A program made the position numbers and the translations under genes. Of a DNA stretch of 64,000 bases, positions 9,928-61,844 are shown piece by piece. This DNA is from an uncultured Gammaproteobacteria bacterium (GTDB lineage: Bacteria; Pseudomonadota; Gammaproteobacteria; Steroidobacterales; Foliamicaceae). How positions within the stretch are numbered: the stretch's first letter is position 1; every line of letters starts with the position of its first letter. Where the stretch lies: positions 2,970,129 through 3,034,128 of the forward strand of contig OX639965.1 in NCBI GenBank assembly GCA_951828235.1. The letters are read 5' to 3'. The notes beneath the pieces were generated by a model. The model was given only the letters and a program-made list of their open reading frames with translations, was not told the DNA's origin and searched no databases.

Positions 9928-10139
9928 TCCTCCCCCGTCGGCGTCATAGCGCCGCCCGGAGACGGCAGATACAAGCGAGGATCCACGATATCGCCACGCG
10001 CGCTTGCCGTCGCCAGAACAGTAACCGCGAGAAGTCCGGACAGCTCTTTCATTCTTGTACCTCTTGAGACGCTACAGCGAGAGTAATTTGACCCTGTACG
10101 TTGGGCGCGTCGGCATGGGCTGCACAGCTGACGGTAACG

Positions 10140-10212
10140 TGGGTCGTGCAGGAATCGAACCTGCGACCTACTGGTTAAAAGCCAGCTGCTCTACCAACTG
10201 AGCTAACGACCC
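10140..10212 (-). tRNA. tRNA-Lys (anticodon UUU)
   Basis: Reverse complement GGGTCGTTAGCTCAGTTGGTAGAGCAGCTGGCTTTTAACCAGTAGGTCGCAGGTTCGATTCCTGCACGACCCA is a cloverleaf nearly identical to the E. coli-type tRNA-Lys(UUU). 3' CCA is not encoded. Confidence 0.95.
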
Positions 10213-12480: not shown

Positions 12481-13862
12481 GGCGTTGGTCCTTGCAGATT
12501 TGGTTGTGTTTCATGCGGGCCCCAGGCGGGCTCGCGCAGGATTCCCTCAGGCGCTCGCAGCAGGCGCAGAATGCCGCTGTCGATGAAATAAACGCCCAGT
12601 CCCCTGCCGGCGGCCGTGCCCGCGCCGAATATCAGGGCGCGGCCGTTTGGGGCGAAGCTGGGCGATTCGTCCAGCGGGCCGTCGGTGAGCAGGCGCAGCG
12701 ACTCGTCGCGCAGATCCAGAAGGCCGATCCGGAAACGGCCGTCCTGCTGGTGCACGATCGCCATCTGGTTACCCTCCGGCTGCAGCCGCGGCCGGGCGTT
12801 GTAGGACCCGGTAAAGCTAACCCTTTGCGCCCTGCCCCCCTGAACCGGCACGCCATATACCTGCGGGCCGATCCCGCGGTCCGAGGTGAAGTACACCCGG
12901 TCGCCGTCAGCGGAGAACTCCGGTTCGGTCTCGGTGGCCGGATGGCGCGTCAGGCGCCGCGGCGAGCCTCCGTCAACCGAATAGACGTAGATGTCGCTGT
13001 TGCTGTCGACGTTGCGCGCTACCGCCAGCAGCTTGCCGTCCGGCGACCAGGCCGGGGCGCTGCTCGTGGCCCGCTCCGGCGACAGCGGCCGGCGACTGCC
13101 GGTCACCACCTCCTGCACGAAGACTTCGGCATAGCCGGCTTCGAACGACACGTAGGCGAGGTAGGCGCCGTCCGGCGACCAGCTCGGCGACATGATGGGC
13201 TCCGCCGAGCGCAGCACGACAATCGGGTTCTGACCGTCGGCGTCCGCCACGATCAGCCGGAACTCCTCGCGGCCCGGCGTCACCTGCACATAGGCCAGAC
13301 GGGTGGAGAACATGCCCCGGGCGCCGGTCAGTTGCTCGTAAACCAGGTCCGCGATCCGGTGGGCCGTGGCCCGGAAGGCGTCGCGGGTGCTCTGCAGGCG
13401 ATACACAAGAAGGGACTTGCCCGCGTAGACGTCCACCAGCTCGAACTCAATGGCCGGGTTCGCTTCGCTGCCGGACACATGGCCCACGAGCACGGCCTCC
13501 ACATCCATGATGCGCCAGTTGTCGAGCCGCATTTCGCTGAAACGGGTCGGCCGGGTGATCATCGTCTCGCGGCCCATGGGCGCAAACTGCCCGGTGCGCT
13601 CGAGATCCGCCTCGACGATCCGGGCAAAGTCATACGGCAGACCCAGCGTGACGCGCCACTCGAAGGGCACGACAGCGATGGGTATTGCCCGCTGGGTGGA
13701 TCGGGTGATGACGATGTCAAGCTGGGCGGAAGCTGCCAGCGGGAGGAGCGCGAGGACGGCGAGGCAAAGCGCCCGGGAGCGAGGACGTCTCGTCCTCGCG
13801 GAGGGCGGGTACACCCTACTTCCCAGCGACGCCATTTCCCCCGGGAGTTTGAAGAGTTTCAT
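12477..13862 (-). CDS. tolB: Tol-Pal system beta-propeller protein TolB
   Basis: 461 aa (start may be later). Repeated SPxWSPDG propeller motifs (SPSWSPDGAYLAY, APAWSPDGKLLA). 4-nt overlap with pal. Confidence 0.9.
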   Translation of the reverse strand: MKLFKLPGEMASLGSRVYPPSARTRRPRSRALCLAVLALLPLAASAQLDIVITRSTQRAIPIAVVPFEWRVTLGLPYDFARIVEADLERTGQFAPMGRETMITRPTRFSEMRLDNWRIMDVEAVLVGHVSGSEANPAIEFELVDVYAGKSLLVYRLQSTRDAFRATAHRIADLVYEQLTGARGMFSTRLAYVQVTPGREEFRLIVADADGQNPIVVLRSAEPIMSPSWSPDGAYLAYVSFEAGYAEVFVQEVVTGSRRPLSPERATSSAPAWSPDGKLLAVARNVDSNSDIYVYSVDGGSPRRLTRHPATETEPEFSADGDRVYFTSDRGIGPQVYGVPVQGGRAQRVSFTGSYNARPRLQPEGNQMAIVHQQDGRFRIGLLDLRDESLRLLTDGPLDESPSFAPNGRALIFGAGTAAGRGLGVYFIDSGILRLLRAPEGILREPAWGPHETQPNLQGPTP

Positions 13863-38920: not shown

Positions 38921-39583
38921 GTGTTCCGATTCATCCCGACCGCCCGGCTGTCGTTGCGCGTGCTGATCGGCATGGCGGCGGGGGGGGTTGGCGCGGGCAT
39001 GTCCGTCGCCGCGTTGCCGCTCGCGGTGGCGAGCCTGATTGAAGCCTCCGGCAATTCGGTCCTGAGGCAGATCCAGGACCAGGGCGCGGTGGAGGCGCCC
39101 GCCCTGCGCGAATTCATCCGCTCGCGCGAGGCCGCCGCGCAGTGGCGCCGCTCCGCCCGCGCCTATACCGACCTAGCCCTGGGCCGCGTGCTGCTCACCG
39201 AATACGAAGACGCCTCGCGCCGCCGGGAGAATCTGGCGCTCGCGGAAAAAGCGCTGGCCAGGGGGCTCGGTCTGGCGCCCATGGACCCGTACGGCTGGAT
39301 GCGCCTCGTGCAGGTACGCACCATGCGCGGCGCGAGCGCGGCGGAGATCGCTCCGCCGCTCCGGCTGGCGTTGCGCAGCGGGCCGCACGAGGACCGGCGC
39401 GACGCCATGCTGCTGCTGACTCTCGAGGCCGGCCTGCGGGCATGGGGCGATCTGGACGGCTCCCAGCGCCGGCTGATCGCGGACAAGGCGCGGGAAGCCT
39501 GGCGTCGCAATGCGCGCGCCGCCGCGGCGGCGGCCGTCCGGGCGGGGGAGACGGAACGGCTGGCCAGCCTGCTCGGCTTCTGA
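38921..39583 (+). CDS. Hypothetical membrane-anchored protein in the EPS locus
   Basis: GTG at 38921 lies 3 nt after the wzc stop. N-terminal hydrophobic segment, then an Ala/Arg/Leu-rich helical (TPR-like?) region. No family recognised. The listed ORF upstream of 38921 overlaps wzc out of frame. Confidence 0.5.
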   Translation: MFRFIPTARLSLRVLIGMAAGGVGAGMSVAALPLAVASLIEASGNSVLRQIQDQGAVEAPALREFIRSREAAAQWRRSARAYTDLALGRVLLTEYEDASRRRENLALAEKALARGLGLAPMDPYGWMRLVQVRTMRGASAAEIAPPLRLALRSGPHEDRRDAMLLLTLEAGLRAWGDLDGSQRRLIADKAREAWRRNARAAAAAAVRAGETERLASLLGF

Positions 39584-47966: not shown

Positions 47967-48700
47967 GTGGACAGGAATCGCCTCGCCGTGCCCTCCAGAA
48001 CGAGGCAGGTCAGGCGGCCGGTGACGTAGGCGCCGGTGTCGATGCCGATCCGGTTGCGAGCGACGACGGGCTCGGGAGCAAACGCATGGCCATGGACGAT
48101 GATCTTGCCGTGATTGCCGGGGTCCTCCATGAACCCGTCCACGCCCCATAGCAGATCCTCTTCCCGTTGCGCCGCCAGCGGCGTTCCGGGCCGCACGCCT
48201 GCATGCACGAACGCGTAGCCCCCTTCGACGTGCAGCGTCGCAAGCCCGTTCAGGAAGTCCCTGTGGGCGTCGGGCAGCGCCTCGGCGAACGACACCCTCA
48301 CCGCCTCCAGGCAATCGGCGTTGCGCGGCCCGGGCGGCAGCGATACCCCGTAGCTGAGCAAGGTACCCTGGCCCCCCGCGGCCAGCCACTGCCGGGCGAC
48401 CCCGGCGTCATCGAGAAACGCGAGCACCCAAGCCTCATGATTGCCCTTGAGGAACACCGTCTCGAATCCCGGCGCGGGATCGCCCAGCAGGAACTCGATC
48501 ACCTCGCGCGACTGCAGGCCGCGGTCGACATAGTCGCCCAGGAAGACCAGCACGCGCCGCTCAGCGCGCGAGGTATCTCGGCGAACCATTGCCACCAGTC
48601 TGGCCAGCGGCCCGAGTTCGCCGTGAATATCGCCGATGGCGTAGACGCAAGTATCGTGCGGAACGGAGTATGTCTTTCGCGTCGACATCGGGGCGTTCAC
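47963..48700 (-). CDS. PPP-family metallophosphoesterase (Ser/Thr protein phosphatase, PrpA/ApaH-like)
   Basis: 245 aa. GDIHG, GDYVDRG, GNHE, then HGH near the C-terminus. Confidence 0.85.
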   Translation of the reverse strand: MNAPMSTRKTYSVPHDTCVYAIGDIHGELGPLARLVAMVRRDTSRAERRVLVFLGDYVDRGLQSREVIEFLLGDPAPGFETVFLKGNHEAWVLAFLDDAGVARQWLAAGGQGTLLSYGVSLPPGPRNADCLEAVRVSFAEALPDAHRDFLNGLATLHVEGGYAFVHAGVRPGTPLAAQREEDLLWGVDGFMEDPGNHGKIIVHGHAFAPEPVVARNRIGIDTGAYVTGRLTCLVLEGTARRFLST

Positions 48701-49484
48701 GGTCCGCCGCTCAGGGATTGCAGTCTTCGCCGCGCGGGTTTTCCCCGAACTGCGTTCGATATCGCGATCGAAGCGACCTCGCCGCCTGCGCCGCCGATGC
48801 GCGCAGTTTCTGCCATCCCCCGTCGAGATACCAGGTCAGCATCAGCGAGTTTCTCGGCGACTCCCCCCCCCGGAATCCGGTCCACCCCGTGCCAGCTGCT
48901 CGGCGTGACCCCGAACGCATACCCGGTATTTGGCAAGAATGGCAGCCTCACGAGCCTCTCCAGTTCTCCGACACCGTTGCGGCGGTACAAGGAGGTACCC
49001 AAATGGATTTGGCTCAGGTCCGCTGGCAGATAGAACTGCACCGTGATGAGCTTTGGGGGATGTCCTGATGCGGTCGGATGCGGTAGCCGGGCAGATCGCG
49101 CAAAAGTGAGATGCGCAAGTTGGTCCTTGCATCCGCAGGGATGGATCTGCTGGCGATAGAGGCGGCAAGTTTCTTCGCAAAGGCATGCTTCACCAGCGGA
49201 TGCCGCAAAGCGTCCGCGACCGCCTTCCAGAAACGGCGACGGGTTCCCTCCAGCGTCCGCAGACTCTCCTCTGTCAACGGGAACTCGAGCCGAGCGCAGC
49301 TTCCGTCCGCCAAAATCGCATCTTTGTGGCGCAGTTCGGCGTAATGGGTGGCGCGCGGCAGTAGACCGATCAGTTGCCTGTAGCTTTCCTCCGCAAAGAG
49401 GCGCTTCAACACGACGTAGTTGAATGGGCGGGGATTCAGAGGCGCGGCTTGGATGGCCTGCACGATTCGCTCGGTTTCAATCAT
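48697..49484 (-). pseudogene. 2OG-Fe(II) oxygenase-like gene split by a frameshift at a G5/C5 run
   Basis: ORFs 49484-49014 (..GYRIRPHQDIPQ..) and 49041-48697 (..QFYLPAD...SWHGV..) together give the HxD...H pattern. Reading one extra C at 49055-49059 would produce ..HQDIPPKLITVQFYLPAD.. in a single frame. Confidence 0.6.
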
Positions 49485-49707: not shown

Positions 49708-49926
49708 ATGAAACACCGCACCAGCGAACCGAAGCACTCTCCCGCGCGCCCGGCGGGAGACGCCGTGGCGCCGCACAACTCACCCCCGCCCCCGAATTTC
49801 AAACCAAGCTGGGCACGTCCGACAATCCGGGTCCTGCCGGTAGTCACGCACACGGCGTCCGGTACGCAGCCGTACACGGGCCCCAATCTCGAGGATCAAT
49901 CAGGGCACTACGTGACCACCTCCTGA
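49708..49926 (+). CDS. Candidate lasso-type precursor peptide P (72 aa)
   Basis: AAGGA lies 6 nt upstream of the ATG. MKHRTSEPKHSPARPAGDAVAPHNSPPPPNFKPSWARPTIRVLPVVTHTASGTQPYTGPNLEDQSGHYVTTS carries the shared leader motif WxRPx(V/I)R and the TxSG junction, with a C-terminal Ser. 177 nt upstream of the PqqD-like gene. Confidence 0.65.
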   Translation: MKHRTSEPKHSPARPAGDAVAPHNSPPPPNFKPSWARPTIRVLPVVTHTASGTQPYTGPNLEDQSGHYVTTS

Positions 49927-50102: not shown

Positions 50103-50384
50103 ATGCAGGTTGAACCGGAAATGCGCGTCGCGCGCAACGACGACATCATCTTCACCGCACTCGACGATACGGTAGTCATGATGGACGTCGACAAAGGACG
50201 CTACTACGAACTCGACCCAACGGCCGCCTCCGTCTGGGCGTTGCTGGAGCGCGAATCCCTTGTGGCCAGCCTGTGCGACGCCTTGCTGGAGCGCTACGAC
50301 GTCTCCGCGGAAACCTGCCGCCGCGACTTACAGGCGTTTCTGGGCGAGCTCGCCGACCTCGGCGTCGTGCAAATCCGGGCGTGA
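50103..50384 (+). CDS. PqqD-family RiPP recognition element protein (lasso B1)
   Basis: 93 aa. ...DDTVVMMDVDKGRYYELDPTAASVWALLERESLVASLCDALLERYDVSAETCRRDLQAFLGELADLGVV is a typical PqqD/RRE winged-helix pattern. Confidence 0.85.
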   Translation: MQVEPEMRVARNDDIIFTALDDTVVMMDVDKGRYYELDPTAASVWALLERESLVASLCDALLERYDVSAETCRRDLQAFLGELADLGVVQIRA

Positions 50385-50449: not shown

Positions 50450-51271
50450 CTATGCGCCGGGCACCAGGAATTCGTATCCGAAATACTCGAAGTTGTCCCG
50501 GTGGCGCCGGAACACGCGGTTGAAGGTGTCAATCTCGGCAGCGCCGAGGCGCCCGATCTGGCGATCGTTCATGTTGGTGAGCATTTCGTTGTACCGACCC
50601 TCCTTCACCCATAGGCGCTGGCGCAGTACAAGGTCGTCGAGTTCCGGCGCCAACGCGCGGATTTTCTCTTCTACCCTTGCCGGTTCATCGCACATCTCCT
50701 CGTAGGTGAAGAACACCCCGCGTTCGCCGTGGCGCTCCAGGTTGCGGCGCTGATAGGAGAAACAGTTCGATACGTGCGTCGCCGCCAACGTGGGCAGGTC
50801 CTCGCGGTTCCCCAGGGAAGAGCCCCGCAGATTGCGGCAGATGCCCTCGCACACCGCGTACGGGTTGCGCACCATGAACAGGAACTTCGCGTTGGGAAAG
50901 TGCCGGACCAGCTCGCCGACGTAGAGCAGAAAGGGCGGGGCCTTCGTATAAAAGACCGACGCCCGGGAGTTGCGCGCGAATGCCTGGAAATACCACGCCT
51001 TGCGCGTGCGCGGCCAATCGTAGGCGCCGGGGTCGGTCAGCCGGGCAAGCCAGTCCGGCTGCGCGCTCCAGATGAGGGGGACTCTCCCCCGATTGACCGG
51101 CCCGACAAAGCCGAGCATCCTCTGACCTTCGTGCACAAGGTTCCAGGTCCCCCGGCACGTCGCCAGCGCTTCCTTGAGGAAGCTCGAACCGCTGTTGTTC
51201 GCCGCGATGCCGAATAGGTGCGTCCCCACGGCGCCCTCGACATCATGCTGGGCTCCGTATATCCGGCTCAT
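50450..51271 (-). CDS. Sulfotransferase-family protein
   Basis: Start at MSRIYGAQ (ATG 51271, 4-nt overlap with the GT8 stop). PAPS 5'-phosphosulfate-binding-like loop IAANNSGSSFL, later FMVRNPYA (3'-PB-like). Confidence 0.7.
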   Translation of the reverse strand: MSRIYGAQHDVEGAVGTHLFGIAANNSGSSFLKEALATCRGTWNLVHEGQRMLGFVGPVNRGRVPLIWSAQPDWLARLTDPGAYDWPRTRKAWYFQAFARNSRASVFYTKAPPFLLYVGELVRHFPNAKFLFMVRNPYAVCEGICRNLRGSSLGNREDLPTLAATHVSNCFSYQRRNLERHGERGVFFTYEEMCDEPARVEEKIRALAPELDDLVLRQRLWVKEGRYNEMLTNMNDRQIGRLGAAEIDTFNRVFRRHRDNFEYFGYEFLVPGA

Positions 51272-52218
51272 TCGGCTTCCCCCGGTTGCGGCGCCGCCCC
51301 TCCCGCGCCCCTTCCGGCCACCCGCGCCACGGCCCGCAGGTGGCCGCTGGCCAGACACTCCAGCCACGCCTCGTACCACAGCCCGAAAAAACGACTCGGA
51401 GGGAAACGCCCGTCTCCCATCAATTGCCACATCATCCGGTCCGGCATCCAGGGCTTGACCGCACCGGTGAAGTGCAGCACCTTCGCCTCTTCCGCACGAA
51501 TACCCTCGCGCGCCCGGATGGCGTCGACGAGGTGCGTTCGATAGTTGTAGGTTGAGCTGACCAGCGTCTGCTGGCCGGCGAAGCGCCGGTTCAGGAGAAA
51601 CTGATCGGAGTGCACCGTATCGGCGCCATGCCACGACTCCGTCGTCACCAGCTCCGCCAGTTCCGAGTACGCGCGTTCGCCCGTCAAGCGCCCGTCGATG
51701 AGCAGCACACCGCAGCTGAAAGTCCGTTCGAGCGCGCCTCCGGGACCGGCGCGCGACGGACTCTCGATTGGCCGATACGTGTCCGCATCGTGGCACCAAC
51801 CCCTCATGAACTCGGTGTCTCCGCAGCACAGCAACGACTCAGCGGAGTCGAAAAGCTCGTCGACCGGCCCGCGAAACAGGAGGTCGCAGTCACAGTAGAA
51901 AACTTTCCGGAAGCCCTCCATCCGGAAAGCCTCGAGGGAATAGAAATCCGGCAGCTTCGAGCGCATGGCCGGACGGGCCTCGCCGAGGCGGATGAGCCGC
52001 TGCTCAAGGGCGGCGCCCACCCGCTCGAAACGCAGCGGCGGAAACGCCGATTCGAGCGATTCGCGCAGTTGCCCGGGCAATCCATCATGGCAGAACACGA
52101 TGTCCCCGCCGAATCGCGGATGCTGTTTCAGGAAGGAGCCGATGCTAACAACGGCTCCCGGCAGGAAATTCTCCGTTGCCGCGAAAACGAGGCAGACATC
52201 ACTCCATCGTGCGCTCAT
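51268..52218 (-). CDS. Glycosyltransferase family 8-like (retaining GT-A)
   Basis: Start at MSARWSDVCLVFAATENF (ATG 52218, 4-nt overlap with the upstream stop). FYCDCDLLF (DxD), GVLLIDG, VLHFTGAVKPW. Confidence 0.75.
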   Translation of the reverse strand: MSARWSDVCLVFAATENFLPGAVVSIGSFLKQHPRFGGDIVFCHDGLPGQLRESLESAFPPLRFERVGAALEQRLIRLGEARPAMRSKLPDFYSLEAFRMEGFRKVFYCDCDLLFRGPVDELFDSAESLLCCGDTEFMRGWCHDADTYRPIESPSRAGPGGALERTFSCGVLLIDGRLTGERAYSELAELVTTESWHGADTVHSDQFLLNRRFAGQQTLVSSTYNYRTHLVDAIRAREGIRAEEAKVLHFTGAVKPWMPDRMMWQLMGDGRFPPSRFFGLWYEAWLECLASGHLRAVARVAGRGAGGAAPQPGEAE

Positions 52219-54158
52219 CGCGAATTCCCCCCTGCGTTGCGCCCGGCCGATCCATCCGCAAGAAACGCTTTCGCCTCGCCGAGGTAGCCGAAGCGTTCCA
52301 TGATCGGACCGTTCGCATCGATGACCGCCCGTACCTGATCCCGCGTAAGCTCGTCGCGCCATGCCCCCGCCCCGCCCGACCGGAAGAACAGGCGCGCCGT
52401 CGGCGGCTTCTCGAAGAACCCGGAACGCTTCTCCTGGGCGCGCAGGCGCTCGAAGCGGGCGCGCTCCACCGCCCGCGAAAGGCGCCCTGCCTCCGGCTCA
52501 AGGCCCGCAAAACGCAGCACCTCCTCAAAGGCGGCCGCCGGGTTCGCCAGCAGATTCTCGTAACGGGCAACGTGAACCGGCAGCTCCCCCTGGTCCAGCC
52601 AGCTCGCTACGTGGCCGCTCCAGGTGAGCAGGGGCTGCGGGAGCACATGGTGGATGCCCCCGACCGGCTGCGACAGAGCGGCGTCGGGACGACATAGTTC
52701 CGCCACGCTACGGGCGATGGACCAGTTCCAGAAGTGCGCGTTGGAAACCGCCACGTCGAGCGGGTTGCGAACGAGGTAAACCGCCCCGCAGGTCACGGAC
52801 GAAGGGAAGAGAAGGCTCCCGCCCGCGGTGCGCAGGCAGGCGTCGTGGACCTTGACGAAGGTTGGGCGCCGCAACTCGGCGGCCAGCAGTTCGTGAAGCC
52901 GCGGCCGCGCTCGCAGGATCTCGTCCGCGGTCAGGTCGGATGAGGGCAGCCCCAGCTGATCGTCGAAAACCTCGCGCTGTTGGAAGTCAAGCCTGCCCAC
53001 GAGCGCGTCGATGGAAGCCGGTCCGTCGCCGTCCTCCAGGTAGTTTGTCAGCAGCGCCCGCAGCCAGGTGTTGCCGGACCGGGGATAGGAAGCAAGCCAG
53101 ACGATGGGCCCTGCATTCCCCTCACGCAAGGCAACATGCTCCGCAACCTTCAGCCGCGGGCGGCTCTTGCCCGTCCGCCACGGCGATGCGTTCGCACCAT
53201 CGATGAGCCTTGGCCACCCGTCGCGCAGACAAGCTTCGACCTCGTCCGCCAGCGCATAGATAGGGCTGCGCCACACGGGTTGCACCAACCGGGCGACCGG
53301 CGCCCGACCCACCAGCGCCACGAGCGCCCGAAACTGGGCGCGCCCCTGTCCGAGCCCGTGCGCGTACCGCTTGCGGTAGATTCGCCCGAGCAGTTGCTCG
53401 AACGCCGCGCCGCGCGAAGGCGCATCGATCCTGAAGCCGTCCTTGTTGTGGTGCATGAGCGTGAAGACTCCGCGCACCGTGATCGGCGCCTCCCGGAAAC
53501 GCGGGGCGGGCGCCAGGTACTTCTCCATTCCTTCCCGCACCCGCCCCTGCACCCGGCTATTCCATCCCAGCGACTCCACCGCATCGGCCCACAGCCGAAG
53601 CCGTGGGTAGGCGGGCAGGGCCACGGGATGACCGCCTCCGTTCGGCACGATGCCCACCACGTCGTCGCAGAGCATCTCGTGCCCGCGGTCGAGCAGCGCC
53701 GCGAGCAGCGTGGATTTGCCGCTCCCGGAGTGGCCCGCAAACAGTACCGCGCCGGAGTCGGTGGCGATCGCACTCGCGTGCAGGGTGAGGACGCCGCGCT
53801 GCTTCAGGCACGCGGCCAGCACCGATCCGAGCAGGAAGGCGCTTACCGATGCGTCCCCGTCCCGGGCGGGTTGGACCGTGATCTCCCGCCCATCGCGGAC
53901 CAGGTAGCGGGCCACCGCGTCCACCACCATCAGGAAAACCCCGGGCGCAGCCTCCCAGGCACCGCGCCGCACCCGGGGTTTGGGCAGCGTATCCGGCACC
54001 GCGCCAATGCGGATGTCCACCTCCGTATCTGCCGTCGGGGAGGCGAGAGGAAGAGGAAGAGGAATCTCGGAGCGTATGACGAGCCCGTAGGCCGCGTAGT
54101 GGCGGGCGCCATGATCCATGGCGCTTTCCAGCGCCCGCACATTGTCCAGCCCGGTCAA
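52215..54158 (-). CDS. Fusion protein: HPr-kinase-like (HprK C-terminal domain-related) kinase plus C-terminal sulfotransferase domain
   Basis: 647 aa. N-terminal half has LHASAIATDSGAVLFAGHSGSGKSTLLAALLDRGHEMLCDDVV (HprK-like P-loop). C-terminal half has LASYPRSGNTWLRALL (sulfotransferase 5'-PSB) and YLVRNPLDVAVS (3'-PB). Confidence 0.8.
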   Translation of the reverse strand: MTGLDNVRALESAMDHGARHYAAYGLVIRSEIPLPLPLASPTADTEVDIRIGAVPDTLPKPRVRRGAWEAAPGVFLMVVDAVARYLVRDGREITVQPARDGDASVSAFLLGSVLAACLKQRGVLTLHASAIATDSGAVLFAGHSGSGKSTLLAALLDRGHEMLCDDVVGIVPNGGGHPVALPAYPRLRLWADAVESLGWNSRVQGRVREGMEKYLAPAPRFREAPITVRGVFTLMHHNKDGFRIDAPSRGAAFEQLLGRIYRKRYAHGLGQGRAQFRALVALVGRAPVARLVQPVWRSPIYALADEVEACLRDGWPRLIDGANASPWRTGKSRPRLKVAEHVALREGNAGPIVWLASYPRSGNTWLRALLTNYLEDGDGPASIDALVGRLDFQQREVFDDQLGLPSSDLTADEILRARPRLHELLAAELRRPTFVKVHDACLRTAGGSLLFPSSVTCGAVYLVRNPLDVAVSNAHFWNWSIARSVAELCRPDAALSQPVGGIHHVLPQPLLTWSGHVASWLDQGELPVHVARYENLLANPAAAFEEVLRFAGLEPEAGRLSRAVERARFERLRAQEKRSGFFEKPPTARLFFRSGGAGAWRDELTRDQVRAVIDANGPIMERFGYLGEAKAFLADGSAGRNAGGNSR

Positions 54159-54182
54159 GAGTCAGGCAGATGCCAAGGGCTA

Positions 54183-54374
54183 TCAGAAGAAAGGAAAATA
54201 GGTCGGGACGTGGTGCTCACCGCTTGGGTTCACATTTGAATCGCCACTTTCGGTGTGCTGCATTCCCATGATCCGAACGGCGGGACGGGTCCAGTGTGAT
54301 TTGCGCTGGATCGAGCGTCGTGGCGAGTTGTCAGCATACCCCCTCCCCCGCGTTTTCAGAGGAATGCGCTGCAT
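54183..54374 (-). CDS. Candidate lasso-type precursor peptide A (63 aa)
   Basis: MQRIPLKTRGRGYADNSPRRSIQRKSHWTRPAVRIMGMQHTESGDSNVNPSGEHHVPTYFPFF. Its stop lies 25 nt upstream of, and co-oriented with, the kinase-sulfotransferase gene. Shares the leader motif. In a hand alignment with the 59482 copy, 8 of 17 substitutions fall at codon position 3. Confidence 0.55.
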   Translation of the reverse strand: MQRIPLKTRGRGYADNSPRRSIQRKSHWTRPAVRIMGMQHTESGDSNVNPSGEHHVPTYFPFF

Positions 54375-54394
54375 CCGAAAACGGCACGGCCTTT

Positions 54395-55171
54395 ATGCTC
54401 GGTCGATTGTCAGACATTTCATTCACCTTGTTCCAGCAGGAAGACGCACCGTGCCAATACTACCACTCTCGCGGCTTTTCCGGCGCGGACCGCAATGCTA
54501 CACTCCGGCGCGTGGAGACGCACGAAGGACGTTCCGCTGCCCCGCCGGCGGCCGAACCCAGCGGGATCGCCCGCGTCCGGAAGCCGACCCGATTTCGTGC
54601 CCTCGGTTCGGTTGACGTGCAGGCGTTGCGGCGCCAGGTCGGGCGCCTCTCGGAGCGGGTCTGGAGGCAGGAAGACGCGATAAAGGAGAACGCCTATCGC
54701 TGCTTTGACCATACTCAGCACATCGTTTTTCGGTTCATCGAGGGCAACCGCGACCCGCGGCGGTTCTACTCGCAGCCGAGCTGGGCAGTCTGGAGTCCGA
54801 TGCTGCTCGCGGTAATGGAGCCGGCCGCGGCGCCGTACCGGTTTCAGGAGCCAGCCTTCCCCAAGGTGATGCTTGCCCGGCTCAAGCCGGGTCACGTGAT
54901 CGAACGGCACGACGATGGCGAGACCGACTGCTCGCACCCGTTCGTGCACAAAATCCATGTGCCGCTGGAGACGAATCTCGGAGCCCTGGTGCACGTGGAC
55001 GGCGAAGACCTCCACCTGGAGGTGGGACAGGCATGGGAGATCAATAACCTCGCGCGGCACGGAGCCGTGAACCGGGGACGAACGGATCGCATCCACCTTG
55101 TTTTCGAGGTCTTCGAAGGGGCGCAGGTGACGATGCCGGAAGATCGTCAACGCACAGCCGCCCGCACTTGA
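54395..55171 (+). CDS. Aspartyl/asparaginyl beta-hydroxylase-family (cupin) protein
   Basis: The ORF is open from GTG 54296; ATG 54395 is the conservative start. LARLKPGHVIERHDD...HKIHVPLETN...EVGQAWEINNLARHGAVN matches the Asp_Arg_Hydrox pattern. Confidence 0.75.
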   Translation: MLGRLSDISFTLFQQEDAPCQYYHSRGFSGADRNATLRRVETHEGRSAAPPAAEPSGIARVRKPTRFRALGSVDVQALRRQVGRLSERVWRQEDAIKENAYRCFDHTQHIVFRFIEGNRDPRRFYSQPSWAVWSPMLLAVMEPAAAPYRFQEPAFPKVMLARLKPGHVIERHDDGETDCSHPFVHKIHVPLETNLGALVHVDGEDLHLEVGQAWEINNLARHGAVNRGRTDRIHLVFEVFEGAQVTMPEDRQRTAART

Positions 55172-55241: not shown

Positions 55242-57089
55242 ATGAGCACGATCTGCGGCATCCAGGATCCTTCCGTCGCCGCCGCCCCCCAACTGGACGG
55301 CATGCTGGACGCACTGCCGGGCCGGGAGACCGACGCGCGCGCCGCGTGGGCGGGGACCTCGGCGGTCCTCGGCTGGCGGGGCCGGCCCGATGTCGGGGCC
55401 GGCGAGGCGCAGGGCGTGCCCCACTTCGACGCCGAGAGCGGACTGACGATCACCGCAAGCGTGCGCCTCGACGGGCGGAACACGCTGTGCGAGGCACTCG
55501 GCGTGCCCGGCGCGCAGCGGCACACGATCGCCGACAGCGTGCTCGTCCTCAAGGCCTACCAGCACTGGGGCCTGGAGTGTCCTCGGCATCTGCTTGGCGA
55601 CTTCGCGTTCGCGCTGTGGGATGAAAAGCGCCGGAGGCTGTTCTGCGCACGCGACCATGTGGGCGCGCGCGCCTTTTGCTATGCGTTCGCGGGGGAGCGC
55701 TTCATTTTCGCGAGCGACATCGACACGGTATTGGCCGCGCCCGGGGTCTGCGAGGAATTCGACGAGACCGTGGTCGCGACCCGCCTGACATACGGCGCCC
55801 GTCCCCTTGGGGACCGCACCTGCTACCGGTCCATCCGCCGGCTGCTCCCCGGTCATGCTCTCGTCGTCGAGCGCGGCGCGCGGCGCTTCAAGCGCTGGTG
55901 GCGTCCCGAGGAGTTGCCTGAAGTCCGGAACGCCTCCGACGACGCCATAGCGGAGGAGTGCCTGGCGATTCTGAGCGAAGCGGTGCGGGACCGCCTGCGG
56001 GGACGCAGGCCCGTTGGCGTGCACCTGAGCGGAGGCCTGGACTCGTCCAGCATCGCCGTCCTCGCGGCTCGCGAACTCGCGCGCCAGGGGAGCGCGCCCC
56101 CGGTCGCCTTCGGTTGGCATCCGCCGCCCGGCCGCGGGCCGCGGGACGCCGCGGCGGACGCCGAGTACGGACCCATCGAGGCGGTGTGCCGTCAGGAGGG
56201 CATCAACATCGTCTACCAATCTCCGCAGGCCCGCGACGTGGTCGATTTCCTGCGCCGCGACGGCACCCGCCGCGCGGACGAGGGCTCGCTGATCCACGAA
56301 CAGATCGTGCAGCGGGCCGCGGCCGCGCGGGGCGTCGGCCTGCTCCTGTCCGGGTGGGGAGGCGACGAAGGCATCTCCTTCAACGGCCGGGGCTACTACC
56401 CGCTGCTGCTGCGAACCGGCCGGCTGGGCAAGCTGTGGCGGGAACTGCGGGAGTGCAGCTCCCGCCCTCTCGCCATGCTTCTGGAGCACGCGGCGCTGCC
56501 GCTGCTCGCTCCCGGCGCGGCGCGCGCGTCAAGGCGGTTGCGCCTTGGAGAGTCGGCCTTGCGGAAAAACATCACGTTCATTCACCCGGAATTTGCGCGT
56601 CGGGCCACGCTGCTGCCCGCAAAATCCCGGCCCTCTCCGGGAGGGCGGGGCGAGCAACTGCATGTGCTCCAGCTCGGCCACCTGAGCCGGCGCATGGAGG
56701 GGTGGGCCGCCAGCGGCGCAAGCCTCGGGCTTGAGTACGCCTATCCCCTGCTGGACCGGCGGGTGCTGGAATTCGCCCTCGGCCTGCCGCCGGATCAGTA
56801 CCGGCGCGGACGCTGGAGCCGTTGGCTGATACGTCACGCGCTCGGCTCGGTCCTTCCGCCCGCGGTTCGGTGGAACCGGCAAAAACGAGATCCCGCGCGC
56901 TACGAGCCGGCACTCGACGCCCTCGCGGAGGCGCTGCCGGTGGTGCGCGGGATGATCGCGGAACGACCGCCGCCACGGGGCCGCTACCTGGACCTGCCGC
57001 GCCTGTTGGAGCAGATGGAACCGAAACGCTGGCGCGACGGCGGAAGGTATGGGCCGGTCCTGAACGCCTTGCGTTTCCTGGATTTTTAA
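55242..57089 (+). CDS. Asparagine synthetase-like lasso peptide cyclase (lasso C)
   Basis: 615 aa. N-terminal MSTICGI (Ntn-type Cys), PP-loop HLSGGLDSSSIA, and AsnB-like architecture, next to RRE/B2/ABC genes. Confidence 0.9.
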   Translation: MSTICGIQDPSVAAAPQLDGMLDALPGRETDARAAWAGTSAVLGWRGRPDVGAGEAQGVPHFDAESGLTITASVRLDGRNTLCEALGVPGAQRHTIADSVLVLKAYQHWGLECPRHLLGDFAFALWDEKRRRLFCARDHVGARAFCYAFAGERFIFASDIDTVLAAPGVCEEFDETVVATRLTYGARPLGDRTCYRSIRRLLPGHALVVERGARRFKRWWRPEELPEVRNASDDAIAEECLAILSEAVRDRLRGRRPVGVHLSGGLDSSSIAVLAARELARQGSAPPVAFGWHPPPGRGPRDAAADAEYGPIEAVCRQEGINIVYQSPQARDVVDFLRRDGTRRADEGSLIHEQIVQRAAAARGVGLLLSGWGGDEGISFNGRGYYPLLLRTGRLGKLWRELRECSSRPLAMLLEHAALPLLAPGAARASRRLRLGESALRKNITFIHPEFARRATLLPAKSRPSPGGRGEQLHVLQLGHLSRRMEGWAASGASLGLEYAYPLLDRRVLEFALGLPPDQYRRGRWSRWLIRHALGSVLPPAVRWNRQKRDPARYEPALDALAEALPVVRGMIAERPPPRGRYLDLPRLLEQMEPKRWRDGGRYGPVLNALRFLDF

Positions 57090-57178: not shown

Positions 57179-57403
57179 ATGAACGACACTCCACATAACG
57201 CAGGGAAGGCGGTGCCTTCCGGTACTGCGAAGTACCCCAGATTGGGGGGGCAAGACTCACCCGGCCGTAAAGAGCACCGAGGCGACAGGCTACCGTGGTC
57301 TCGCCCCGCGGTGCGCGTAATGACAGGAGTCCGATCAACCAAGAGCGGACCAGAGGCTAACAATCCATCTGTGGAGAACGAATTTTATCGACCAACATCT
57401 TGA
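57179..57403 (+). CDS. Candidate lasso-type precursor peptide C (74 aa)
   Basis: AGAGG lies 8 nt upstream of the ATG. MNDTPHNAGKAVPSGTAKYPRLGGQDSPGRKEHRGDRLPWSRPAVRVMTGVRSTKSGPEANNPSVENEFYRPTS. Lies between the cyclase and the ABC exporter. Has the leader motif, the TKSG junction and a C-terminal Ser. Confidence 0.7.
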   Translation: MNDTPHNAGKAVPSGTAKYPRLGGQDSPGRKEHRGDRLPWSRPAVRVMTGVRSTKSGPEANNPSVENEFYRPTS

Positions 57404-57655: not shown

Positions 57656-59491
57656 ATGACGGCGCAACCCACGCCCCAGAACCCCACAATGCCCCGCTCG
57701 GCCGAAGGCGCGTTTCGCGGCGCCGGCGCCCTCGTCGCCGAACTGCTCGCCCGAGCGCCCGGCCTTTCCGCGCTTGCGCTCGCGCTGCTCCTGACCGCGG
57801 CCGTGACAGAGGCGTTCGGCCTTGCGTTGATCGTTCCCCTGCTGTACGTCACGGGTCTTGCCGAATCCTCCGGCAACCGTCCCCCCGTAGTGGACGCCGT
57901 CGCCGCCGCCGCCGAACGCATCGGCCTGGAACTCACGCTGCCGTCGGTTCTCGCCATCTTTCTGGCGCTGGCTGCCGTGCGTGTCGCCGCCGCATGGCAG
58001 CGGCAGCAGGTCCTGGCCCGCCTCGCGCACGGATTCGAGGACCGGCTTCGCGGCGATCTATACGCCGCGACGGCTTCGGCGAAGTGGTCCCACCTGATCC
58101 GCTGGCGCCGCTCCGACATCCACCATGCGCTGACTCGGGAAATTCGCCGCGCCGGGAGCAGCGTCAACCTGCTCTGTCAGCTCGCCGCAGGCTCAGTGCT
58201 TGCACTGGCCCAGTTTGCCGTCGCCGTCGCGATCGACCCGCTGGTCTCGCTCGGCGCGTTGGTCGCCGGCGCCGCACTGGCGTTCCTGACGGTCCCGCTG
58301 GCTTCGCGCTCCTCGCGCCGCGGCACGCAGTTGACGCGGCGCAACGAGGCGCTGCACGCCCTGGTGTCGGACTTCCTGGCCGGTCTCAGGCTCGTCAAGA
58401 GCCACAACGCCGAAGGGCGCCACCTCGGGGACTTCACGGCCGCGGCGCGCGCGACCCGGCAAAGCGAGCTGGCGTCCCGGGCCACGCTCGCCGCCGCGCG
58501 CGCCGTCATGGACCTGGGCGCGGCATGTACGCTGGCCGCCCTGGCCTACGCGGCGATCATCTTTTCCGGCCTGGCTCTGCCCGAACTGCTCGTTCTGGTG
58601 CTGGTCTTCGCCCGCCTGATACCGTCCCTCTCGCGCCTGCAGCAGTTCGCCCAGCAGCTGGCCCAGCAATTGCCGGCCTACGCGCACGCCACCGGCATGA
58701 TCCGCCGGTTGCGCCGGGGCGCCGAGCCGATCCCGAAGGAAAGCCGCTTCCCGCTGCGCCTGCGCGACGCCCTGAACGTGTCCGGCCTTTCGTTCGCTTA
58801 CCCATCCTCGCCCGAAACCCCGGTCCTGACGGACGTGAACCTGTGCGTTCCGACCGGCCGATTCGTCGCCGTCATGGGTCCGTCGGGCGTCGGCAAAAGC
58901 ACGTTCGCAGACCTTCTTTTCGGCCTCCTGGAGCCCTGCCGCGGCGAGATCGCGATCGACGGCGCGCCGTTGACGCCTGCCAACGCGCGGCGCTGGCGCG
59001 ATTCGGCCGCCTACGTCCCCCAGGAGCCCTACCTGTTTCACGAATCCATCCGCGCCAACATGCTCAGAGCCAACCCGAAGGCTTCCGGCGCCGAACTTGA
59101 ACGGTCGCTCTCCCTCGCCGACGCCCGCCGCTTCGTCGATGCCCTGCCCCGGGGACTCGACACGGTGGTCGGTGATCGCGGCGCCCGCCTTTCGAGCGGC
59201 GAGCGCCAGCGCATCGCGATCGCTCAGGCGTTGCTCCGGAACCCGGCGCTGCTACTGCTCGACGAACCCACCGCAAATCTGGACGCCGCCTCGGAGCGCC
59301 GGATCGTGGCGACGCTGGCCTCCCTGTGCCCACGCGTCACGGTCGTGACCATGACCCACCGGCCGGAGCCCGCCAAGCACGCGGACAACATCGTCCTGCT
59401 ACGATCCGGCCGCGTTGCCGCCACCGGACGCTGGAGTGAACTCGAAGCCGCGCTCGAGGGTCCGCTAGATGCCAAGGGCGATCAGGAGTAA
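57656..59491 (+). CDS. ABC transporter, fused permease/ATPase (lasso D-type exporter)
   Basis: 611 aa. 6 TM helices, then Walker A GPSGVGKST, signature LSSGERQRIAIA, Walker B LLLLDEP. Confidence 0.9.
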   Translation: MTAQPTPQNPTMPRSAEGAFRGAGALVAELLARAPGLSALALALLLTAAVTEAFGLALIVPLLYVTGLAESSGNRPPVVDAVAAAAERIGLELTLPSVLAIFLALAAVRVAAAWQRQQVLARLAHGFEDRLRGDLYAATASAKWSHLIRWRRSDIHHALTREIRRAGSSVNLLCQLAAGSVLALAQFAVAVAIDPLVSLGALVAGAALAFLTVPLASRSSRRGTQLTRRNEALHALVSDFLAGLRLVKSHNAEGRHLGDFTAAARATRQSELASRATLAAARAVMDLGAACTLAALAYAAIIFSGLALPELLVLVLVFARLIPSLSRLQQFAQQLAQQLPAYAHATGMIRRLRRGAEPIPKESRFPLRLRDALNVSGLSFAYPSSPETPVLTDVNLCVPTGRFVAVMGPSGVGKSTFADLLFGLLEPCRGEIAIDGAPLTPANARRWRDSAAYVPQEPYLFHESIRANMLRANPKASGAELERSLSLADARRFVDALPRGLDTVVGDRGARLSSGERQRIAIAQALLRNPALLLLDEPTANLDAASERRIVATLASLCPRVTVVTMTHRPEPAKHADNIVLLRSGRVAATGRWSELEAALEGPLDAKGDQE

Positions 59492-59637
59492 GGAAAATAG
59501 GTGGGGACGTGGTGCTCACCGCTTGGGTTCACGTCCGGATCGCCACTTTCAGTGCGCTCCATTGCCATGACCCGGACCGTGGGGCGAGTCCAGTGTGATT
59601 TGCGCGGGGCTGCGCGTCGTAGCGAGTTGTCAGCAAT
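59482..59637 (-). CDS. Precursor-like coding segment B1 (paralog of peptide A); start codon unresolved
   Basis: ..IADNSLRRAAPRKSHWTRPTVRVMAMERTESGDPDVNPSGEHHVPTYFPYS, stop at 59482. No ATG/GTG/TTG lies between the G14 tract and the leader motif. Only the frame through the G14 tract (TTG 59769) is open. The A-like upstream frame (GTG at about 59686) would need 13 or 16 G. Confidence 0.45.
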   Translation of the reverse strand: MADNSLRRAAPRKSHWTRPTVRVMAMERTESGDPDVNPSGEHHVPTYFPYS

Positions 59638-59834
59638 CCCCCCCCCCCCCCAATTTCCAGGGAATGCGCTGGTGGATGCGCCACACCGAAGGACACCGTA
59701 AAGAGCACCCAGGCGACAGGCTACCGTGGTCCCGCCCCGCCGTGCGTTTTTTGGAAGGAGTCCGATCAACCGCGACCGGACCAGAATTCTATAGGGTAGA
59801 GAATACGCCTCACTATGGACCTACTGCGTCTTAG
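59595..59834 (+). CDS. Candidate lasso-type precursor peptide B2 (79 aa from GTG 59595; alternative ATG 59664 or 59676)
   Basis: MICAGLRVVASCQQSPPPPNFQGMRWWMRHTEGHRKEHPGDRLPWSRPAVRFLEGVRSTATGPEFYRVENTPHYGPTAS. Shares GRKEHxGDRLPWSRPAVR with peptide C and SPPPPNF with peptide P. Gly-to-Glu spacing of 8 and a C-terminal Ser. Confidence 0.6.
   Translation: MICAGLRVVASCQQSPPPPNFQGMRWWMRHTEGHRKEHPGDRLPWSRPAVRFLEGVRSTATGPEFYRVENTPHYGPTAS
59638..59651. repeat. Homopolymer C14 (G14 on the minus strand)
   Basis: Read directly: ...cagcaat cccccccccccccc aatttcc. Lies in the overlap of the 5' regions of the divergent ORFs B1(-) and B2(+). Confidence 0.95.
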
Positions 59835-59871
59835 CCCGATGCGGCTCGCGTAAATGCCGAGGAGCCAAGGC

Positions 59872-61188
59872 TCATGGGCGTACTGGGCATTTCGGCTTCT
59901 CTTTCGCATCCCCCGCAACCTGCAGACGTCCCGTACCGCCCCGGCGCGTTGTAGCTTGGCCGGAGCGTTTCCTGTTGCGCTCCAGCCTGCTGGCCAGCCA
60001 CAGGATCGGGCGCAGCGGCAGGTAGAGGAAGAACAGCCGATCAGGCAAATCCACCCTCCCCAAATCGTACGGCGCTACGCAAAGCCGGGCCAACTCGTGC
60101 GCCGCGCTGCGCCAGGACGGGTTCATCGCCTGACCGAGCCACAATTCGTCCATCCGTCGATCGAGGCCCTCAAGCCCTTTGCCGCCGTGCGGCCGGTTCC
60201 AGAGACGGCGAGTCGAGCGCATTGCGCGGCCGGCCCAGGCGCCCGGCGGCGGAAAAGCCGCAGGCGGGTCCACATGGAACATTTCCGAACACAGGAGAAG
60301 AGCCGCTCCGAACGCGGGCTCCAGCCGCAGTCCCTCGCGCCTGCACCGCTCGACGGCCGCAACGAGGTGGTCCTCGTCCATGGAAGCGAGCAGCGCAGCC
60401 ATGTCGCAAAGCCACTTCAGCCGGCTCCAGCGATGAAGCTGGCCGTGGATGGCCAGGTAGACCATCAGGTCGCCGTCGCCCAGGGAGGCGAAGGCTTGGC
60501 CGCCGATCTCGACGCTGACCGTGCTGGCGCTCAGCGTTTCAAAGGACGCGCGCAACAGGAACGGGTTGTTGACCAGGCGATGGTGCAGTTCCAGCTTGCC
60601 GTGGGGGCCGATAAAGAGGCGGTCCTTGACAAACCGGTCGTAGTGGCGGATGCGGGCCGGAGTCGGGTGAAATGACGGCTTGACAAGGCGCCAGCCACCC
60701 GACGCCAGAGCTTGGGCAGCCTCCGCGGCCTGCTCCCGCGGGACCAGCAGGTCAATGTCGATACAGTCCCTTGCAAGCGGCGTGCCGAACAACCGCATGC
60801 TCAGCGGCAGGCCCTTGAGCACCAGCGACGGAATACCGCTTGCGGCCAGACGATCCGTAGCCTCACGCAGGTCCGCGAGCTGCCGCAACCCTCGTCTCAT
60901 CCTGTGCTGTCGGAAGGGCTCCAGTGCAGCTTGCGCGTCGGGACTCGGGTCCGCGACGGCGCTCACGCCGCGGAGCAACAGCGAACCGACCCGGTGGCGC
61001 CTGGCGAGAGCGGCTACGGCGTTCCAGTCGGCGACGCCGTCGAGCGCCGCGGTATCCGCCTCCCGTGTGCCGACGCCCATGCCAAGGCGCAGCCCGGCAA
61101 GAAGGCCCGCGAACGGCGGCGTTCGAGCGCTGCGTGCGTTCCGCCGCTGCGCCGCCGCCGATGTTCCCATCAGGCCTTTCGGCATCAT
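59872..61188 (-). CDS. Uncharacterised nucleotidyltransferase-family protein (PF14907-like)
   Basis: 438 aa. ...LVLKGLPLSMRLFGTPLARDCIDIDLLVP... (GS/DxD nucleotidyltransferase-fold motif). 4-nt overlap with the upstream B2 gene. Confidence 0.7.
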   Translation of the reverse strand: MMPKGLMGTSAAAQRRNARSARTPPFAGLLAGLRLGMGVGTREADTAALDGVADWNAVAALARRHRVGSLLLRGVSAVADPSPDAQAALEPFRQHRMRRGLRQLADLREATDRLAASGIPSLVLKGLPLSMRLFGTPLARDCIDIDLLVPREQAAEAAQALASGGWRLVKPSFHPTPARIRHYDRFVKDRLFIGPHGKLELHHRLVNNPFLLRASFETLSASTVSVEIGGQAFASLGDGDLMVYLAIHGQLHRWSRLKWLCDMAALLASMDEDHLVAAVERCRREGLRLEPAFGAALLLCSEMFHVDPPAAFPPPGAWAGRAMRSTRRLWNRPHGGKGLEGLDRRMDELWLGQAMNPSWRSAAHELARLCVAPYDLGRVDLPDRLFFLYLPLRPILWLASRLERNRKRSGQATTRRGGTGRLQVAGDAKEKPKCPVRP

Positions 61189-61844
61189 GGCGATCTGGTC
61201 GACGAACGTCCCGGTTCGTCACCGTTGGGATACAGTGGCGACAGTGGAACGTAGGTGTCAAGTTCCCCGCCCCCGATGACGCACTGCCCGGCGACCATCA
61301 GCCAGGCGTGGTACTCGAGAGTCCGCTCCGGCGTTCGGCCTCGCCGCGCGCCGAAGACAAGACGGCTCGGGATACTCCGCCGGCGCAGCATCCATTGCGC
61401 CGCCATGGCCTGCGGCAGACAAAGCGCCTGGAACGGCAGGCGGCGGGCCACCTTGCGGACGACGCGCGCCATCTTTCGGGGGATACGCAGTCTCGCTGCC
61501 GCGCGCCGCTCTTCGTCGGCGCGTTCAGCCGGCCGCTCATCCGCGCCCGGGAGCATAGTGGAGCGCCGTTGCCTGGGCGATTCGGCGCGTTCGGGACAGG
61601 GCGAAGACTCCGGCACCATATCAAGACGACGGCGCCAGAACCGCATCGGCACATGCGCGACAAGCAGTCGCGCCAGCAGCAGGGTGAACGCCGCTTCCAG
61701 CGCCAGCGCCTGCGTTGCGGCCGGCAGGCGCAGAAAACTGCGAAGTCCGTTGACGGACGACGAAGCCCCGCGCTTTGCTGCGGCAAGCCGGCCCGCCCGC
61801 CGTCCCTGTTTCTTCATTTCGTCCTCGCCCACCACCTGCGCCAA
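61185..61844 (-). CDS. Lasso peptide biosynthesis B2 protein (transglutaminase-like cysteine protease, PF13471-like)
   Basis: 219 aa. ...LPFQALCLPQAMAAQWMLRRRSIPSRLVFGARRG....LEYHAWLMVAGQCVIGG gives the Cys...His pattern and the overall signature of leader peptidases of split-B lasso clusters. Confidence 0.85.
   Translation of the reverse strand: MAQVVGEDEMKKQGRRAGRLAAAKRGASSSVNGLRSFLRLPAATQALALEAAFTLLLARLLVAHVPMRFWRRRLDMVPESSPCPERAESPRQRRSTMLPGADERPAERADEERRAAARLRIPRKMARVVRKVARRLPFQALCLPQAMAAQWMLRRRSIPSRLVFGARRGRTPERTLEYHAWLMVAGQCVIGGGELDTYVPLSPLYPNGDEPGRSSTRSP

Follow-up and report, generated by a model that had tools for sequence, protein, structure and literature searches.

Phase variation through simple sequence repeats (SSRs) is textbook biology for the surface antigens and restriction systems of host-adapted pathogens. 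At the contingency loci of Campylobacter jejuni and Helicobacter pylori (poly-G/C) and at pilC and lgt of Neisseria (poly-G), the 5' coding portion of a gene holds a G/C run of 8-14 or more nucleotides (nt), the length of the run differs between near-identical strains, and a frame change connects or disconnects the start codon. Here we describe a tract that resembles these loci in its length and variability, and may do so in its effect on frame, a run of 14 C on the plus strand (14 G on the minus strand) at positions 59638-59651 of a 64,000-nt stretch of DNA (the window) from contig OX639965.1 of an uncultured Gammaproteobacteria bacterium. The tract belongs to a lasso-peptide gene cluster at about 49.7-61.9 kb, in which five open reading frames (ORFs), P, A, C2, B1 and B2, resemble precursors, and it marks the head-to-head junction of B1 (minus strand) and B2 (plus strand). 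It differs from the described contingency loci in its host, an environmental high-GC bacterium, in its targets, which are precursors of peptides made on the ribosome and modified after translation (RiPPs) instead of surface or restriction-modification genes, and in that the gene at the B locus lacks a native start.

In architecture, the closest likeness is to Neisseria opa, in which CTCTT repeats occupy the signal-peptide-coding region and several paralogues, each with its own tract, are in mixed on and off states; in both cases the repeat falls in a part of the protein that is later removed, the signal peptide there and the leader here. As with the TA repeats of hifA/hifB in Haemophilus influenzae, a single tract lies between divergent genes and one length change could affect both, but the hif tract sets the spacing between the promoter -10 and -35 elements, whereas the run described here is in or next to coding sequence, with no promoter-like elements found. 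Transcriptional slippage systems (the poly-A runs of insect endosymbionts, Shigella mxiE and the frameshift sites of IS elements) likewise feature a long homopolymer in an ORF whose DNA frame is often 'wrong', but they involve A/T runs and correction at the RNA level, whereas here G/C runs vary at the DNA level. The biosynthetic cluster itself resembles those of paeninodin, pseudomycoidin and Sphingobium yanoikuyae in its Asn-synthetase-like cyclase, Transglut_core3 protein, PqqD/RRE, ABC exporter, HPr-kinase homologue, NTP_transf_5 protein and sulfotransferase. In paeninodin/pseudomycoidin-type systems the kinase phosphorylates the C-terminal Ser of the precursor (review PMC8498205), and the Ser-ended precursors found here match that target residue. 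The present cluster is distinguished by having five precursor ORFs instead of one, a kinase fused to a sulfotransferase, an extra GT8 protein and Asp/Asn beta-hydroxylase, homopolymers in the leaders and a Glu that is not always at core position 7-9.

The five ORFs share the leader motif W-[AST]-R-P-[AT]-[IV]-R-x-[LM]...T-x-[ST]-G, which is too specific, on both strands, to be an antisense accident, so that all five are or were precursor genes. In the reading that we favour, and to which we give an even chance, the tract would be a slip-prone, contingency-like element shared by one clade of lasso precursors, with the B tract as its local copy. As delimited by sequence comparison, this clade is that of the Ser-terminated precursors, in clusters that encode the HPr-kinase/sulfotransferase fusion, NTP_transf_5, GT8 and Asp/Asn hydroxylase proteins. 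A G-run on the coding strand (or a C-run, in the opposite orientation) would sit about 15-20 codons upstream of W-x-x-P, in an N-terminal stretch of the leader that is dispensable; slipped-strand mispairing during replication would alter the run length and thus shift the frame between the start codon and the leader and core, and individual precursor genes of a multi-precursor cluster would be stochastically connected to, or cut from, translation as at a contingency locus.

Length variation of the B tract

The tract, which the original prediction had singled out as conspicuous, is indeed the longest homopolymer in the window, the runners-up being C9 at 48863 and G8 at 38980; by base composition, 0.014 G/C runs of at least 14 nt are expected per 64 kb. 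An exact look-up of precursor P identified five genomes for comparison at the B locus (L002 and L005-L008), which are independent assemblies from different pipelines (SPAdes, scaffolded and hifiasm-type) and are 98.7-99.1% identical to the window, none being identical to it. All of them carry a long run at the B site:

Window: C14
L002: C10
L005: C11
L006: C10
L007: C12
L008: C14

The comparison of tract lengths among relatives, which the original prediction had named as a check, thus yielded a spread (10, 10, 11, 12, 14 and 14 nt in six near-identical genomes) and not a uniform length, and the remaining ~385 nt between the stop codons of the ABC transporter and nucleotidyltransferase genes contain 4-5 single-nucleotide polymorphisms (SNPs) and no other insertion or deletion (indel) in these genomes. 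The five relatives diverge from one another by 13-34 SNPs per 10.4 kb, yet they carry four B-tract alleles, and the only other indels among them are one additional base in the A tract of L008 and a 3-nt GCC repeat. Homopolymers of 6-7 nt in the shared region are of constant length in all strains and only the two runs of at least 9 nt vary, which argues that the B tract is a genuine mutational hotspot. Its 4-nt range exceeds ordinary homopolymer-calling error, and since every independent assembly has a long run at this site, the tract is no artefact peculiar to the window assembly. With 14 nt in the window and 10-14 nt in the relatives, it lies above the length of about 8-9 nt from which G/C tracts are hypermutable, and it differs between close genomes while its flanks are conserved, as expected of an SSR locus. 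A hypermutable site of the slipped-strand type is therefore well supported by these alignments, and a role in phase variation is plausible. Of the slipped-strand phase variation originally proposed, the hypermutable site (10-14 nt with stable flanks) stands, whereas a clean switch is not demonstrated, as a start codon is in frame in every phase (see below).

A cyclase genome scan retrieved one further relative, a reference metagenome-assembled genome (L001, labelled Gemmatimonadetes bacterium, 98.7% identical), in which a 208-N gap (13293-13500) coincides exactly with the B1/B2 locus, whose length in the window is 356 nt; the gap gives no tract length and is consistent with assembly failure at a repeat or homopolymer. 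Scanning Joint Genome Institute (JGI) metagenomes for the B-tract flanks with a variable gap between them gave no match.

Recurrence in the leaders of related clusters

Related loci were found as homologues of the kinase-sulfotransferase fusion. They are listed here with their amino acid identity to the window enzyme and with their precursor runs, scored as in or out of frame with the conserved M-[NS]-[DE] N-terminal start:

L010, 74%: G13 in frame; G14 out of frame (MSDDRHEGTGAAPTRAARLPRGGGG*); G8 in frame
L011, 72%: C33, read as ten prolines, in frame
L093, 71%: no run of at least 8 nt
L012, 66%: no run in the precursor
L095, 64%: G10 in frame; G15, G21, G11 and G14 all out of frame
L096, 63%, a circular contig at 64x: a tandem pair of near-identical copies, one (G17) in frame and the other (G12) out of frame

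One more cluster (L097, P0022) ends at the contig end, contains no precursor and is uninformative. Four other lineages of the cluster family thus carry G/C runs of 10-33 nt at the equivalent leader position. Across 174 kb of related loci and window, 11 of the 12 G/C runs of at least 10 nt fall within 150 nt upstream of the WxxP motif, a region that makes up 1.8% of this sequence (binomial P about 8e-19), and in L095 and L096, which were fetched after the hypothesis had been formed, all seven runs are at the leader position. About half of the tract-bearing copies are out of frame with the conserved start, among them the full-length homologues L010-2, L095-2 to L095-5 and L096-1. Farther afield, the 80 distant loci (33-50% identity) contain no G/C run of at least 10 nt, and none of the 27 precursor-like ORFs from these distant relatives has a G/C run of at least 7 nt upstream.

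The orientation of the run is not fixed: most copies have the G-run on the sense strand, whereas L011, P and the long form of B2 have the C-run there. This independence of orientation favours a DNA-level, frame-based role and sits poorly with a particular peptide motif, and G-quadruplex formation was rejected as a general explanation, the G-run being on the sense strand in most precursors but antisense in P, L011 and B2. Within the cluster, GGG accounts for 27% of Gly codons and CCC for 34% of Pro codons, so that runs of identical codons would not be expected from protein-level selection alone; together with the tract-free relatives, the homopolymeric codon choice makes a protein-level need for poly-Gly or poly-Pro unlikely. 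Leaders of the family come in a poly-Gly form, with G on the sense strand, as well as in a poly-Pro form, with C there (the C33 of L011), so that a coding reading of the tract has precedents for both directions. In 9 of 15 tracts across species, the G-run follows immediately after an A-rich GAAAAT[TC].

Selection on this mutability is a further step that we infer from the comparisons. Taken for the family alone, the proposal that each precursor's run is a selected contingency locus, through which clonal cells would make different subsets of lasso peptides, has in our estimate a little less than an even chance. The mechanism would be of a known kind, SSR frame switching, with a new class of target and a new ecological setting, and a literature search found no report linking lasso peptides or RiPP precursors with phase variation or homopolymeric tracts. 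If correct, this would be the first case in which SSR phase variation acts on a repertoire of RiPPs or natural products, and the host would be a free-living bacterium of high GC content. Should the tracts switch, one cluster would act as a stochastic combinatorial generator of peptides, a form of bet-hedging in the antagonism or signalling of soil and water bacteria. Switching would also explain why gene callers and RiPP miners miss precursors (four of five here are uncalled), heterologous expression of such clusters would require tract-corrected constructs, and homopolymer "errors" in metagenome assemblies ought not to be blindly polished away. The tract-bearing precursors offer a directly testable system, in which a one-base change of the tract is set against the peptide made.

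Reading frames at the B and A loci and competing explanations

The features on either side of the B tract, and the A locus from which part of it appears to be copied, are as follows:

59482..59637, minus strand: leader and core of B1, on the downstream side of the tract; IADNSLRRAAPRKSHWTRPTVRVMAMERTESGDPDVNPSGEHHVPTYFPYS*; copied from precursor A and truncated at the 5' end
59652..59686, minus strand: candidate B1 N-terminus VWRIHQRIPWKL, with GTG at 59686-59684 and a TTG at 59653-59651 that abuts the tract
59664..59834, plus strand: B2 precursor, ATG 59664 and second ATG 59676; MRWWMRHTEGHRKEHPGDRLPWSRPAVRFLEGVRSTATGPEFYRVENTPHYGPTAS*
59595..59663, plus strand: optional N-terminal extension giving B2-long, from GTG 59595, with the tract read as PPPP
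54183..54417 (ORF 54183-54374), minus strand: precursor A locus, ATG-2 at 54374 and ATG-1 at 54417-54415

The DNA at 59446-59671 is an 82% copy of the A locus (54148-54371), and that at 59696-59785 is 87% identical to C2 (57265-57354). In the favoured reading, the window tract would belong to B1, a duplicate of A that lacks the 5' end and is joined head-to-head with B2. The leader and core of B1 remain open over 51 codons and retain the recognition motif and a C-terminal Ser; the final 10 nt of B1 are shared with the end of the ABC transporter gene. The candidate N-terminus joins this core in frame only with a G count of 10, 13 or 16. With the 14 G of the window, the minus-strand frame from the GTG (at 59686-59684, and not 59683) reads VWRIHQRIPWKLGGGGDC*, and with 13, 10 or 16 G it continues into IADNSLRR..HWTRP.., so that the translations and the frame arithmetic put forward from the window sequence are borne out; the A-like N-terminal frame ends in ..GGGGDC* because the tract region of B is longer by one base than that of A. 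Thus 14 G leaves B1 out of frame with its nearest upstream starts (GTG 59686 and TTG 59653) and 10 or 13 G places it in frame, and alleles with 10 G are found in natural strains.

At the A locus the equivalent tract is interrupted, as originally described (C5TC5 at 54339-54349), and it comes in three alleles that differ in 1-nt steps: the window has 11 nt, five strains have 12 nt and L008 has 13 nt. The allele decides which start, if any, is in frame. ATG-2 (54374, MQRIP..) is in frame in the window only and ATG-1 (54417-54415), which is preceded by the Shine-Dalgarno sequence AAGGTGA at 54429-54423, is in frame only in L008, so that A is in frame with a start in two of seven strains. The product from ATG-1, MSDNR.SIKAVPFSDAAHSSENAGEGE.., is homologous to the N-terminus of C2 (MNDTPHNAGKAVPSGTAKYPRLGGQ..) and to precursor N-termini in other species, and the family start M-[SN]-D.. 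lies about 22-25 codons before the tract, which at A corresponds to ATG 54417, in a different frame from ATG 54374. By this homology ATG 54417 is probably the ancestral start of A, and MQRIPLK, which had served as the reference for the N-terminus of B1, is probably not native. The neighbouring hydroxylase probably starts at GTG 54512, as its homologues have 205-210 amino acids (aa) and align with the long form from residue 61 onwards; such a start would make ATG 54417 intergenic. The A/B homology ends near 54371, and for this reason B1 lacks the M-S/N-D N-terminus entirely. The C-terminus of A reads PFF in the window and PFS, the expected kinase substrate, in the six other strains.

Several observations weigh against a working switch at the B locus. 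Each of the three tract phases has some upstream non-ATG start in frame with B1 (a distant TTG 59769 alone for G14, GTG 59686 or TTG 59653 for G10 and G13, GTG 59708 for G12), and a clean on/off switch is thus not demonstrated. B1 has no family-type M-N/S-D start, native Shine-Dalgarno sequence or promoter: a well-placed Shine-Dalgarno sequence is found at none of its candidate starts, whereas P, C2 and ATG-1 of A have one, and no sigma-70-like promoter was found in 59300-60000, on which ground promoter-spacer phase variation was also rejected. The tract may therefore no longer control anything here. For the family as a whole, the precursors of L093 (71%) and L012 (66%) have no long run, so that the tract is not universal in the clade, and copies that are out of frame in about half of cases are also the outcome of neutral decay or sequencing noise. 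Homopolymer lengths are error-prone in metagenome and long-read assemblies, especially for G21 and C33, and the evidence is comparative throughout; unselected decay of redundant precursor copies, or slippage in transcription that deprived the frame of its effect, would leave a similar picture.

These points bear most directly on the view that the B tract is a neutral hotspot in a dead copy, B1 (and perhaps B2) being remnants of a deletion or rearrangement that removed their N-termini and promoters, in which an unselected run drifts without function. We regard this as unlikely but as deserving real weight. It would account for the end of the A/B homology at the second start codon of A, for the missing M-S/N-D N-terminus, Shine-Dalgarno sequence and promoter-like site, for tract lengths of 10-14 nt that cover all three phases, for a ratio of nonsynonymous to synonymous substitution rates (dN/dS) of about 0.9 between C2 and B2, which indicates no constraint, and for the fact that no gene caller predicts B1 or B2. 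It fits less well with the intact 51-codon leader and core of B1 and with the dN/dS of B1 against A, which is about 0.43 in the proposed frame and about 0.9-1.1 in most control frames, although the counts are small and the wobble-sharing antisense frame of A versus B1 gives about 0.45. B1 has no substitutions across six strains and looks, from these ratios, to be still under constraint, and the locus is nearly invariant in the six strains apart from the tract. Full-length precursors of four other lineages, moreover, retain long runs at the same position, which is hard to reconcile with pure decay. The same comparisons make it very improbable that the tract has a single true length and that its apparent variation stems from homopolymer-calling errors. 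No feature is more error-prone in sequencing than the homopolymer, several of the assemblies derive from long reads and the closest reference genome has its gap exactly at the locus, but six assemblies from different pipelines all have a run of at least 10 nt, their differences reach 4 nt and loosely track strain relatedness (10, 11, 10 versus 12 versus 14), runs of 6-7 nt are perfectly stable, and the flanking-identical copies in L096 (64x) differ by 5 nt.

According to the original prediction, the tract would be read as poly-Gly in B1 and as poly-Pro in B2, and a single slip would turn B2 off and B1 on. The arithmetic holds, with B2-long in frame only at C8, C11 and C14 and B1 (from GTG 59686) at G10, G13 and G16, and natural alleles fall in both frame classes. 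The plus frame from GTG 59595 reads ..SCQQSPPPPNFQGMRWW.. into B2, and its SPPPPNF does recur in P in mixed codons (TCA CCC CCG CCC CCG AAT TTC, 49780-49800), to which the poly-Pro leader encoded by the C33 of L011 may be added. B2, however, has in-frame ATGs at 59664 and 59676 that lie downstream of the tract and are kept in every strain, and three of the six strains have a broken long frame, so that B2 may be independent of the tract; C12 leaves B2 without a start upstream of the tract and C10 gives it a different N-terminus. The N-terminus of B2-long amounts to the B1 leader read in antisense, in a frame that is open at the A locus too; neither GTG 59595 nor GTG 59686 has a convincing Shine-Dalgarno sequence. 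With C2 versus B2 unconstrained besides, the reciprocal switch is arithmetically valid but unsupported as biology, and we consider it improbable. Initiation of B2 at ATG 59664 or 59676, ungated by the tract, is most likely on these data, and a combination of family-level contingency loci with a B tract that is read both ways and toggles both precursors reciprocally is only marginally less doubtful than the reciprocal switch. Similarly small credence goes to frame-agnostic expression, in which transcriptional (or ribosomal) slippage on a G/C run of at least 10 nt would yield messenger RNAs in mixed frames, the tract would be a dimmer instead of a switch and its DNA length would be nearly neutral. 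In its favour are the length of the runs (10-33 nt), a roughly random ratio of in-frame to out-of-frame copies and the slippage known at long homopolymers in other bacteria, but the poly-G tracts of Campylobacter and Neisseria, at 8-13 nt, give discrete on/off states, and by this precedent slippage on a G/C run does not normally erase the phase. A structured RNA or known RNA family at the tract was also rejected, since an Rfam gathering scan of the whole window gave only a tRNA at 10140-10212. The sole terminator-like match at the B locus lies inside the B2 leader, with a T-run that is not conserved in relatives.

The cluster and its precursors

By Pfam assignment, the cluster encodes the following proteins:

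50103-50384, plus strand: PqqD/RRE
about 50450-51271, minus strand: sulfotransferase
to 52362, minus strand: GT8 glycosyltransferase
52215-54158, minus strand: fusion of an HPr-kinase-like protein (Hpr_kinase_C/ScmC-type domain) and a sulfotransferase (Sulfotransfer_1)
probably GTG 54512 to 55171, plus strand: Asp/Asn beta-hydroxylase
55242-57089, plus strand: lasso cyclase, Asn-synthetase-like (Asn_synthase)
57656-59491, plus strand: ABC exporter
59872-61188, minus strand: NTP_transf_5 nucleotidyltransferase
61185-61844, minus strand: Transglut_core3 leader protease

The two remaining precursors are:

49708-49926, plus strand: precursor P, 72 aa, ending ..TTS*
57179-57403, plus strand: precursor C2, MNDTPHNAGKAVPSGTAKYPRLGGQDSPGRKEH..PTS*, with its ATG at 57179 (corrected coordinate)

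The Pfam list for the cluster holds two sulfotransferases besides the entry for the fusion. The precursors thus stand in the context expected of lasso peptides, with a cyclase, a Transglut_core3 protease and a PqqD-like RRE adjacent, and all five ORFs combine a recognition motif of the YxxPxL type with a Thr close to the cleavage site, at position -2 if the core begins at Ser/Thr and at -3 if it begins at Gly. Four of the five (P, C2, B1 and B2) end in Ser in the window, which, with an HPr-kinase homologue in the cluster, is the combination found in kinase-tailored systems. Counted from the conserved Gly after T-x-S/T, B2 has its conserved core Glu at position 8, P at position 11 and the three others (A, B1 and C2) at position 10; in the relatives it is at 8-10, and the canonical acceptor position is 7-9. 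On this count most window precursors have their Glu outside the canonical ring, which would mean either cleavage elsewhere or unusually large rings.

In P, the tract at 49783-49794 is interrupted and C-rich (C5GC5G), encodes PPPP and is stable in all strains. The P leader DNA (CCCCCGCCCCCG AATTTC, 49783-49800) resembles the reverse complement of the A/B1 module (GAAAWT plus G-run, 59638-59657 and 54339-54359), so that, relative to the leader motif, the module with the tract is found in either orientation. The homologous run of C2 is just G7 (57244-57250) and invariant in all strains. The core of C2 (57355-57365; L001 11156-11166) reads SGPEANNPSVENE in the window and SGPDELTPAVEN in the relatives of ~99% identity, with compensating indels that keep the frame, and constitutes a localised hypervariable core.

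Gene callers predicted P alone, leaving A, B1, B2 and C2 uncalled in every assembly. A word-indexed profile search of 5.8 billion proteins with the five precursors returned only P itself, and an exhaustive profile search returned a handful of relatives, all in frame and without a tract. Precursors of this family thus largely escape standard annotation. Exact-protein look-ups of the ABC transporter and the NTP_transf_5 protein of the window found no record for either.

Near the 3' end of the kinase-sulfotransferase gene, the window has an extra C at 52247 compared with six relatives, which alters the last residues and the position of the stop codon. In L012, the precursor is in frame with PqqD as a single 173-aa ORF (3938-4459), and a C11 run (9984-9994) lies in the linker between the kinase and sulfotransferase domains. 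A second hypervariable run occurs at 48863-48871 of the window, with C9 here and 8, 8, 8, 8, 9 and 11 nt in L001, L002, L005, L006, L007 and L008, respectively. It lies inside a hypothetical gene of ~258 aa (about 48700-49484, minus strand) that has no Pfam hit and is directly upstream of precursor P. Further indels in this gene are A3/A4 near 49052 and, in L002, one of 2 nt; the window has the gene as two separate ORFs, and only in L007 and L008 does it run without interruption.

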